This document shows, in pieces, positions 6,001-9,000 of a stretch of 47,296 bases of DNA. Source of the DNA: a virus (Duplodnaviria; Heunggongvirae; Uroviricota; Caudoviricetes); the IMG/VR virus record IMGVR_UViG_2879765931_000007; one strand, 5' to 3'. Position numbers: made by a program. The stretch's first letter is position 1. Every line of letters begins with the position of its first letter.

Positions 6001-9000
6001 GTTTCCCTGTTCAGCCTGACAGCACGCCCCGGCTGCCGGATGACAGACTCCGCTTCGGTAAGCAAAGCGGTCTTCTGTGATTCCGCCAGTTGCGGCTTAT
6101 TCATTACTCAACGTCAAACGCCCGAATTGAAGCCAAATCATCCAGACCGCTCAGCTCCTCTTTCATTTCACGCTGACGGCGATAAATCTCATCGTTGCGA
6201 TCGACCTGCGCCTGCACCATTGCTGCCGCCAGTTCTTCCAGTTCCGGCATCGACAGTTTCACCTGCTGATTATCGGCATCGCTCCACGCCATATGTGTTT
6301 GTGCTGTGACAGATTTTGCCAGCATGACTACCGGGGACAGGCGGCCCAGTGAATCGGGACCAGCATTCCAGATACGACCGTTCCATTCAAACGTGAGCGG
6401 TTTCGCCTCCTGTTCTGCGCGCCATGCTTCAATTTCCTGACGTCTGGCCTCTCTGGCCGCTTCCAGCATTTCTGGTGTCACAGTGAATGGGGCTATCTCA
6501 CCCCATTTGCCGCTTTGCAGTTCCTGCCAGATTTGCTGACCCGTCGGAGCGACATCATCAGCGGTGGCTGTGTAGGGGACTGCCTGGTCCCTGTCGTCAA
6601 AAAAAACGTCACAGTCTACTGCGCCACTTTCGGTATAACGGGGATTAATGATTTTTTTAATTTCCACGGTGCATTCCTCACGATGTGCGAATAAAAAGCC
6701 CGGGCATTGCGCCAGAGACATGAGCATCCGGCACCCCGGACAGGGCGCAATATGACCCCGGTAATGAATGCTCTGAACATCCCGTAATGAAAAATTGTGG
6801 GGATGCTATATACGTTCCGGTGGGAGTACTGGGCACTGAAATCCCTGATATCGTGTTCTCTGGCGATCCGGGCAACAACAGCCCCAGGCTGTAACGCCTG
6901 CTTAGCCAGACGGACCTTAAATTCACGGCTATAGCTGGTTCGCCGTTCTTTTCGCCATGAGCCTTCTCTGATTTGAGGCTCTGTTAATTCCTTCTTTCTG
7001 TTGGCATAAAGGATGGCGTCAAGTTGAGCGAATGAAACTGAATCGGGCAATGGCCATGCGATACCGGATGCAAGAAATCGCTGAAAAAGCGTATGTATTG
7101 TGGAATGACTGAGACCCAGACGCTGAGCGATGGCCCGGATGGTCAGTTTATCTTCAAATCTTAAACGCAGGGCATCAGGCAAATAAGAACGGAAGCAGGG
7201 AATATCTTTTGTTGTCTGGGAATTCATCGTTCGTGTCCATCAATATAGATGGGCGCGATTGTTGCCAGACAGGACAATTTTCACAAGACGTCGCTGATGG
7301 GGCGCTTACTGTTGTTCTGAGGTGAGCATATCACCTCTGTTCAGGTGGCCAAATTCAGTGTGCCACTTCAAATTAAGCATTGCCAGAATGATTACATACC
7401 AGCGTTAATGGCTAACCAACAAAGCCAAGGTTGGTAATTAAGGAGTTCTCCACGGGTGAGGTGGAGTGCGTGCGCCGGACACGGGTGAGTATCCGGCATG
7501 TTCTTTAAAAATCTGAATACCTTGACTCAAAAATCATTATTGAAATTGTAGTCCATGAGATACTCATTTTTACAGGAGGGGCATTGAGTTTTCGTATATT
7601 TATCGCCTTCCTCGATAGGGAAAGGTTGCAATATAGATATTGCTCTCTTCGCAAAACATTCTGGACAAAAATACATGGTAATCTTGCCAGAGCTAGTATT
7701 GCACTGTCTGGCATACACAATCGTTCCAGTAATCAATTAGCGAGGTTCGCAGTCTTCACTTTGGAACTTAAACTTTTCTATCTCCGTGAGTTTTGCTTTG
7801 AGCGCAGCCTCATTGCTTTTAGAGATTGTCAGCTCATCAATGAGAGACAAATATTCAAGCTGAATGCTTGACAACTTAGAGTTTATTTCAGACACAGCGC
7901 GATCAACCTCAGCCTGAGTTTTTGCTTCATTGAATAATTTTAACATTGATGCAGTCTCTTTGAGAGCTGACATCGCTAATACATCACTTGCTCACTCTTC
8001 TTATTGTTGGGGTATTCAGATTATACAAATTTCTTGTTGTTGGGGAATAACAGGAACCACCTCGCCTGACGTAGTTAAAAGCAGGCACACAACGCGAAAT
8101 GACGCGGCGGTAAGTATGGCGGAGTTATTCCTTCCCCGTTGAGGACACCGGGTTGTCAGGTTGACCATACGCTTAAGTGACAACCACGCCACAACACTCC
8201 ATGTTGATTGGTACCTTTGGCGGCATCAGTTTCATTGCTGGCTGATGTCCGCCCTTTTTAAAGTGAATTTTGTGATGCGGTGAATGCGGCTGAGCGCACG
8301 CGGAACAGTTAAAAAGCGATTAGTTCCCACGTATCGGGTGGTTATGGGTTTCCCTGTATCCGGCGTTAATTGTTAACTGGTTAACGTCACCTGGAGGCAC
8401 CAGGCACCGCATCAACAAAGTTCACTTCGGTGATGAAAGGTAAGAGAAAATGTTGAATGTAGCTATTGAAAACCAGAACGGGTGGAATTATAGTGCATCT
8501 GCACCTCATAAAACGGGGGCCGGGCGTGGAAACCCGAACGTTACTCGAGCGCATAGCCGCGCTGAAGCGGTTTTTTTATGCGTAATGCACAGCTCCATTC
8601 AAATTATGGTGGGATGTGCAGGGCAGTCGCAAGACTGGCCGGGTTCTCGAGTGACCGGTATTTCCACCCCTGTACGTCTCACCACCCTTATGGTCGTGGA
8701 AAACCTCGGTGGTGAGTTAATTAACTTATCACTCGAGGATGCCATCATGGCTACTATCCCTGCCCTTTCTCACCCTGACGTAACCATCGAAAACGGTCGC
8801 GCTGTCACTACGTCTGTTGCGGTTGCAGAGTTCTTCCACAAACGACACGACAATGTGTTACGTGCCATCGCAAATACTGAATGCTCACCTGAATTTAACG
8901 CCCTCAATTTTGAGGACGTCACCTACACCGACACCAAAGGCGAAAAACGCCCAATGTACCAAATCACCAAAAACGGCTTCGTTTTCCTGGTGATGGGCTT

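Follow-up and report, generated by a model that had tools for sequence, protein, structure and literature searches.

Two small ORFs adjoin on the minus strand of the window (the whole stretch of 47,296 nt analysed here, from virus record IMGVR_UViG_2879765931_000007), and the locus raises the question of whether they form a system of two genes. A sequence-only reading took them for an AT-rich cassette of a coiled-coil protein and a zinc-ribbon protein, resembling a small toxin-antitoxin or phage-defence pair. We compare the locus with its relatives in phages and bacterial genomes and conclude, with a probability of about 0.9, that it is a dead, split gene of the Rip1 family, of single ancestry, in a degraded Rac/Qin-like prophage.

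One reading frame interrupted by one stop codon

The features of the gene are as follows.

7737-7973, minus strand: ORF1, 78 aa, the N-terminal helical half, matching phrog_1244 positions 9-82
7527-7736, minus strand: ORF2, the C-terminal β-rich zinc-ribbon half, matching phrog_1244 positions 90-146
7737-7739, minus strand: premature stop TAA; CAA (Gln79, 148-aa numbering) in intact alleles, C to T on the coding strand
7572-7667, minus strand: four family-invariant cysteines (CPEC...CPSC), a putative Zn site, all four kept in the window
7527-7984, minus strand: the complete Rip1-family (HkaP-like) pseudogene, extending from what is left of the native start codon as far as the native stop
7974-7984, minus strand: native-start remnant, ATG TAT TAG (Met-Tyr-stop), with the deletion junction between 7981 and 7980
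8020-8025, minus strand: perfect TATAAT hexamer, about 35 nt 5' of the native ATG, read directly from the sequence

Both ORFs are present where they had been placed, ORF1 with 78 aa and ORF2 with 69 aa when counted from a TTG or 49 aa from an internal ATG. The region is AT-rich as described, with a GC content of 0.37-0.41 over positions 7500-8100 and 0.48-0.55 in the flanks. Helices are predicted in the N-terminal part, in line with the helical or coiled-coil character assigned to ORF1, and the two CxxC motifs seen in ORF2 are CPEC and CPSC.

The division into two genes fares differently. Translated as a whole, positions 7527-7973 of the minus strand give a single frame of 149 codons with a lone internal TAA at 7739-7737. 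The ORFs abut without a spacer, as had been observed, because ORF1 and ORF2 are the same frame cut by that one TAA; the positions are right and the count of genes is not. The apparent TTG start of ORF2 stems from ORF definition alone. ORF2 has neither a Shine-Dalgarno sequence nor a conserved start, and the sequence preceding the TTG is CCTCGCTAA. In PHROGs, both ORFs match the single phage family phrog_1244. The TAA is positioned at the junction of the long helix with the first β strand, almost exactly at the domain boundary. On this sequence evidence, the region is one gene rather than two.

Relationship to Rip1

A profile of 70 homologues has one decisive match in the PDB, over the full length: 9oox_L, 'ring interacting pore 1 (Rip1)', 164 aa, with E=1.9e-37 over positions 5-148. 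The title of the entry describes Escherichia phage HK446 Rip1 in complex with phage T6 small terminase. The read-through protein of the window matches 9oox Rip1 with E=2.6e-7 over residues 13-140, across the stop, and the identity to the solved HK446 Rip1 is about 26-27%.

The fold points to the same entry. An AlphaFold2 model was made of P0001, an intact 155-aa Salmonella homologue that is 89% identical, and not of the split window product. The model has a pLDDT of 92.6 and is composed of two helices (residues 2-23 and 27-79) and a β-rich domain (strands at residues 83-149). In a Foldseek search of the PDB with this model, only 9oox_L and 9oox_M are significant, with a probability of 1.00 and TM values of 0.68 and 0.82, respectively. 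The HMM and structure searches that the sequence-only reading had proposed as a check therefore both lead to 9oox.

Pfam, NCBIfam, and PADLOC (2023) have no family match for the separate ORFs or the fused protein, only sub-threshold zinc-ribbon or coiled-coil noise, and membership rests on the PDB entry together with the PHROG and profile searches. The earlier statement that no family could be recognised holds for those three collections and gives way, under profile and fold search, to Rip1/phrog_1244; it is understandable, since the Rip1 family was named only in 2026. On the evidence of sequence profiles and predicted fold, the gene belongs to the prophage-encoded anti-phage family Rip1 (ring interacting pore 1; HK620 HkaP-like; phrog_1244).

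A zinc finger of the DksA/TraR type, an idea that came from the helices and the C4 finger, was considered and rejected: no Pfam match is obtained even at E≤10, and no DksA or TraR structure is among the fold or sequence matches. The hydrophobic moment of the 78-aa fragment is moderate in an Eisenberg scan, with a maximum of 0.44.

Conservation as a single polypeptide

An exhaustive search of 1.84 billion representatives at E≤1e-3 gives 243 matching representative clusters, nearly all of 145-175 aa and aligned over both halves. A word-indexed homologue search returns two proteins only, and the family emerged from the exhaustive search. An N-terminal region of at least 70 aa followed by CxxC...CxxC is found in 129 of the best 150 representatives. 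By tblastn, a single ORF spans more than 80% of the fused query in all phage records examined (32/32). The E. coli alleles, the 32 phage records, and those 129 of the best 150 representatives accordingly have one polypeptide of about 145-175 aa each. Among the 70 homologues, C110, C113, C138, and C141 are the sole invariant columns.

Conservation of the ORFs as a pair had been set beforehand as a check on the two-gene reading. They are not conserved as a pair elsewhere; the halves are fused in the relatives. In a collection of 15 billion proteins, the exact 78-aa product is on 515 contigs named Shigella flexneri or 'MULTISPECIES: Shigella', and the 69-aa and 49-aa ORF2 proteins are absent. The proposed pair is thus one polypeptide in every relative looked at, and ORF2 is never called as a separate gene.

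Intact alleles and loss of the native start

Read through the TAA, the window copy has 99% DNA identity to single intact genes of E. coli VL40 and RMDEC465. In RMDEC465 the same DNA carries one annotated CDS of 447 nt and differs from the window at four of 541 aligned nucleotides, the CAA/TAA difference among them. Alignment with RMDEC465 and translations of 13 loci place the change of CAA to TAA at codon 79 of the window copy. We regard the descent of both ORFs from one gene as established.

A second lesion lies at the 5' end. In E. coli VL40 and WGI31CT, the allele encodes 155 aa and starts seven codons further 5'. In comparison with these alleles, a deletion of 10 bp (TTGATCTATC) directly follows the native ATG in both the window and RMDEC465. 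The native ATG is now read as ATG-TAT-TAG at 7984-7976 of the minus strand; codons 2-5 are lost, the frame is shifted, and the present ORF begins at the former Met8. The N-terminus removed by the deletion, MFDxSLAMSAL, is conserved in the family (70 homologues). The two lesions aside, there is no amino-acid difference between the window copy and the intact VL40 allele. The ancestral allele has sensor and effector on one polypeptide and the window copy does not, with its TAA at codon 79 and its native start lost. Cut by the TAA and deprived of the native start, the window copy is therefore a pseudogene of the Rip1/HkaP family.

The arrangement of the present 5' end, ATG TAT TAG CG ATG, is competent for reinitiation.

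The TATAAT hexamer at 8020-8025 is identical in the E. coli alleles. Judged by its sequence, it is possibly the -10 element of a promoter belonging to the gene, whose -35 element would be poor. A consensus scan reports no minus-strand promoter 5' of the gene, the hexamer at 8020-8025 included.

The prophage slot and its RNA elements

The surroundings of the gene contain the following features.

About 6846-7309, strand not given: IS66-like tnpA remnant
7310-7371, minus strand: left inverted-repeat end of IS911, 62 bp; the same sequence precedes IS911 orfA in three Shigella assemblies (L010, L011, and L013)
7372-7408, plus strand: last 37 nt of ydfC, from local alignment and the annotation of locus L001; homology to the intact E. 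coli prophage starts here
8206-8254, plus strand: DicF-like sRNA variant with terminator hairpin and T-run (Rfam RF00039, 38.8 bits, below the gathering threshold of 48)
8266-8419, plus strand: STnc100-like element (Rfam, below gathering)
8450-9082, plus strand: Rha-family ORF, annotated as Rha-family by RefSeq in E. coli
8501-8577, plus strand: IsrK (Rfam, 59.6 bits, above gathering)
8602-8689, plus strand: C4 antisense RNA (Rfam, 76.7 bits, above gathering)

The prophage is lambdoid and Rac/Qin-like, and its early-left (dicB) operon carries the gene as an AT-rich moron that runs against the operon, with ydfC on one side and DicF on the other. The gene order in intact relatives is repressor - ydfA - (ydfB) - ydfC - [Rip1-like, opposite strand] - DicF - (Rha) - dicB or ydaE - recE. 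A divergent allele of the family occupies the same slot in E. coli C311 and Ecol_545, matching the family profile with E=8e-53 and 3e-44, respectively. Among 5426 complete genomes, the divergent allele is found in 68 and the allele of the window in four. As the ydfC-DicF slot holds divergent alleles too, it is a recurrent home of Rip1 variants. The layout of a stand-alone gene on the counter strand is common to the window, the E. coli loci, HK620, HK630, PhiR29_2, D3112, and vB_EcoM-689R2.

About 770 bp of structured non-coding DNA had been described as following the cassette. The RNA-family matches bear out the structure, but the stretch (7974-8745) lies 5' (upstream) of the gene on the gene's strand, and it is partly coding, overlapping the Rha-family ORF from 8450. 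The DicF-like match, with a terminator-like site at 8222-8249, is alignable and syntenic with DicF upstream of dicB in the E. coli loci. IsrK and C4 make up the RNA module that controls the downstream Ash/Rha antirepressor-like gene. The DicF-like, STnc100-like, IsrK, and C4 elements are of known kinds and are unrelated to the Rip1 gene.

Decay of the locus and the prophage

The sequence-only reading placed the cassette between an IS911 remnant and a Rha-family gene. The Rha-family ORF is there, at 8450-9082 of the plus strand; the IS neighbour is composite, made up of an IS911 end and an IS66-like tnpA remnant with 100% identity to IS66-like tnpA. The IS911 end cuts off ydfC and the prophage immunity region and is itself interrupted by the IS66-like element. 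To the left of the IS ends lie a tail-fibre fragment and then ipaH. The immunity region and ydfAB are gone, the prophage being truncated at 7371/7372 by IS elements, and on the other side the adjacent Ash/Rha gene is frameshifted by a +1 insertion at 9046, followed by another IS. What is left of this Rac/Qin-like prophage has been cut short by IS elements. Elsewhere in the window, the Shigella-specific sRNA CssrB is located at 3898-4080; together with the names under which the 78-aa protein is recorded, it marks the host as Shigella, most likely S. flexneri.

The gene itself decays further in sister genomes. Eight complete or large Shigella assemblies were read, and the TAA allele is the same in each. 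Five of the eight have no further stops in the rest of the ORF, and in the other three, which have the same 78-aa product, IS911 is inserted at nt 295 of the gene, destroying ORF2 and leaving ORF1. The IS911 insertion and the loss of flanking prophage indicate that the locus is not under purifying selection. An independent, unannotated copy in E. coli PSJ-22 is interrupted by two in-frame stops.

Comparison with known systems

The gene shares with Rip1 of HK446 and P. aeruginosa an N-terminal region of about 80 aa of helices followed by a β-rich CxxC...CxxC domain, and it is likewise a prophage-borne single gene counter-oriented to its neighbours. It differs in sequence (about 27% identity), in its slot (ydfC-DicF, whereas Rip1 lies between terminase genes), and in that the window copy is broken. 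In Pseudomonas phage D3112, Orf25 matches Rip1 with E=2.1e-20; its gene is flanked by the small-terminase-like orf24 and by the large-terminase orf26 and is read from the other strand, at the location given for Pseudomonas Rip1 (PMC13434031).

HkaP of HK620 matches Rip1 with E=2.4e-10. HkaP (HK620, HK629, and HK630; phrog_1244) belongs to the same family as the window protein, with 24.8% identity (tblastn E=4e-9), and in HK620 and HK630 it is a lone opposite-strand gene inside the early-left (pL) operon. It is annotated as 'putative superinfection exclusion protein'. HkaP is an intact protein of 164 aa, encoded between N/hkaQ and cIII in a functional phage, whereas the window gene is split and lies in a defective prophage. 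The only paper found on hkaP uses the flanking intergenic regions as insertion sites.

On the lambda map and in the HK620 annotation, SieB (lambda and P22) comes from a small gene of the pL operon; expressed by the prophage, it aborts the infections of other phages, and it is a positional and functional analogue of the Rip1-like gene. SieB, a membrane protein, has no zinc ribbon. It matches the window gene in none of the sequence or fold searches run, and the two are related neither in sequence nor in fold.

Type II toxin-antitoxin pairs also consist of two small adjoining ORFs in a prophage accessory slot, and a real RelE/ParE-Phd/YefM pair adjoins the intact allele in E. coli VL40. The window ORFs, in contrast, are fragments of one gene without a toxin or antitoxin domain, and Pfam, NCBIfam, and PADLOC give no toxin-antitoxin signature for them.

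Proposed mechanism of the intact ancestor

The primary description of Rip1, a single-protein prophage defence, is reportedly that of Patel et al., Nature 651:1060, 2026 (doi 10.1038/s41586-025-10075-1). In P. aeruginosa, Rip1 is encoded in a prophage, where its gene is flanked by the terminase genes, and the protein is non-toxic alone; phages that escape it carry mutations in the portal (Pseudomonas phages) or the small terminase (E. coli phages) (PMC13434031, PMC12908700). In the cryo-EM structure, an 11-mer ring of small terminase is surrounded by 12 Rip1 monomers, with the C-terminal half of Rip1 touching the ring and the N-terminal amphipathic helices making a pore (PMC13434031, PMC12908700). 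Liposomes lose their dye through the pore, the inner membrane is disrupted, and infection is aborted late in morphogenesis (PMC13434031, PMC12908700). Pore formation requires templating by the ring via the C-terminal half (PMC13434031).

By homology, the intact ancestor of the ydfC-DicF clade presumably worked like the characterised Rip1 proteins. The ancestor, of about 155 aa, would have been harmless by itself, as published for Rip1. When a superinfecting phage made ring oligomers (small terminase or portal), the C-terminal zinc-ribbon domain would dock around the ring, and the N-terminal amphipathic helices, templated in this way, would form a membrane pore; the cell would die before progeny mature (abortive infection). 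The trigger and effector of this clade might differ from those of HK446 Rip1. In the window, the native start is destroyed by the 10-bp deletion, and the change of CAA to TAA cuts the 78-aa pore module off from the sensor module, leaving the C-terminal half untranslated or orphaned.

Alternative readings

A genuine two-gene cassette would need the coiled-coil and zinc-ribbon proteins both to be translated and to act together, as a toxin-antitoxin or defence pair. The two ORFs are formally present and adjoining, the stop lies near the domain boundary with each fragment a complete structural module, and the allele is widespread in Shigella. The shared frame with its one TAA, the fusion of the halves in every relative, and the deletion of the native start weigh against two genes. 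So do the lack of a Shine-Dalgarno sequence or conserved start for ORF2, which is never called as a gene, the lack of any match to a toxin-antitoxin or defence-pair family, and the IS911 insertions of sister genomes that destroy ORF2 and keep ORF1. Comparison of sequences with the intact alleles largely refutes the two-gene reading, and we consider it highly improbable. A type II toxin-antitoxin pair was rejected on the one frame with one stop, the fused halves elsewhere, the absence of domain matches, and the missing annotation of ORF2. The earlier suggestion of a toxin-antitoxin or phage-defence pair is right in kind as to defence, given the Rip1 ancestry, and wrong as to a pair and as to toxin-antitoxin. 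Nor is the stop codon a sequencing or assembly error in a gene that is intact in the genome. It is a single-base difference from the intact alleles, as such an error could be, but the 78-aa product is on 515 contigs of independent assemblies and the TAA is identical in 8/8 Shigella assemblies; the error is excluded by an allele common to many independent assemblies, its chance being practically negligible.

The split gene might instead keep some activity, through the 78-aa fragment alone, through re-associated fragments, or through occasional read-through of the TAA; its product could, for instance, form a weak pore, affect the membrane, or act as a dominant negative towards other Rip1 copies. 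The identity of the 78-aa product across the 515 contigs, the lack of amino-acid changes relative to VL40 outside the two lesions, and the reinitiation-competent ATG TAT TAG CG ATG would fit such a role. TAA is the least leaky stop codon, which argues against read-through. The identity across Shigella is explained more simply by recent clonal descent, and the IS911 insertion and flanking prophage loss argue against selection for any remaining function. In addition, the pore needs ring templating via the C-terminal half (PMC13434031), which is missing from the 78-aa fragment. Taken together, these forms of residual activity are quite unlikely. It is very unlikely that the Shigella allele is a natural two-piece Rip1, with the free 78-aa helical module active alone or with a reinitiated C-terminal fragment; such a module might, for instance, permeabilise the membrane under stress or interfere with other copies of Rip1. 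We favour a dead, split Rip1-family gene. Because assembly is templated through the C-terminal domain, which the fragment lacks, the 78-aa product is presumably inactive; we infer that the split copy is non-functional, and the window copy is most probably a dead remnant.

Implications

The value of the analysis is mainly corrective: the observation behind the two-gene reading is real but was misparsed as two genes. The Rip1 family is already described and is not a new two-gene system, and the locus makes no open question testable beyond what the work on Rip1 already offers. The appropriate annotation for the 78-aa 'hypothetical protein' of the 515 Shigella contigs is N-terminal fragment of a Rip1-family pseudogene. 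The locus is a further example of the loss of accessory functions in Shigella via point mutation and IS activity. For the Rip1 family, the ydfC-DicF interval of the dicB operon in Rac/Qin-like prophages emerges as a second recurrent location, and divergent alleles fill it in about 1% of complete E. coli genomes.

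Ash/Rha gene and overlapping RNAs

The gene next to the Rip1 pseudogene encodes an Ash/Rha-family regulator.

8450–9338, plus strand: Ash/Rha-family regulator, split into two ORFs with phrog_995 matches
8489–8776, plus strand: Pfam Phage_ASH match (residues 14–109 of the ORF from 8450)

Relative to E. coli RMDEC465, the Ash/Rha gene has one extra nucleotide at 9046 (+1 insertion), and because of this insertion it is divided into ORFs of 210 and 97 aa. Both match phrog_995, the former at positions 1–201 and the latter at positions 201–303. At the 3′ end of the gene, an IS element takes over from ~9335. 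Like the Rip1 gene of the same window, the Ash/Rha gene is a pseudogene.

The DNA under the Phage_ASH match also carries IsrK and C4 RNA matches (8501–8689). Either an Ash protein and IsrK/C4 RNAs are encoded on top of each other, or the Phage_ASH protein family has been built in part on translated RNA genes.

34907–35108, minus strand: second IsrK/C4/a1b1-target locus (Rfam; all three matches above gathering threshold)

This second locus indicates that the same module for antirepressor control is present in another prophage remnant.

DicF-like sRNA

8206–8254, plus strand: DicF-like sRNA, sequence variant

The score of this sRNA is below the Rfam gathering threshold despite synteny. The variant is common to the window and E. 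coli C311, and differs in the stem and the 5′ region from K-12-type DicF, which is seen in strain Ecol_545. It may differ from the K-12 type in target specificity.

Other loci of the window

3898–4080, minus strand: CssrB, Shigella-specific sRNA, adjoining ipaH
4209–5924, plus strand: chromosomal ipaH (LRR and NEL E3-ligase domains)
17237–17353, plus strand: ALIL pseudoknot, an IS3-family frameshift element
32515–32822, minus strand: cluster of four tRNA genes
39307–39481, minus strand: sok antitoxin RNA (hok/sok-type, CssrC)

The last three come from a whole-window Rfam scan. Repeated IS copies flank both CssrB and ipaH; such copies, as pairs of 272-aa and 100-aa ORFs, recur across the whole window.

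IS911 and the ydfC–Rha interval

In three Shigella assemblies (L010, L011, and L013), IS911 interrupts the Rip1 pseudogene at nucleotide 295 of the gene, after codon ...SSGKI. The window, by contrast, has an IS911 end 155 nt past the stop of the gene. Therefore, either there have been two or more IS911 insertions into this short stretch, or IS911 has caused an adjacent deletion.

L016 (E. coli VL40) 1653–2215: RelE/ParE–Phd/YefM toxin–antitoxin pair

In VL40, this pair directly adjoins an intact Rip1-like gene, both within the ydfC–Rha interval, which suggests a small hot spot for accessory or defence genes at this place in Rac/Qin-like prophages.
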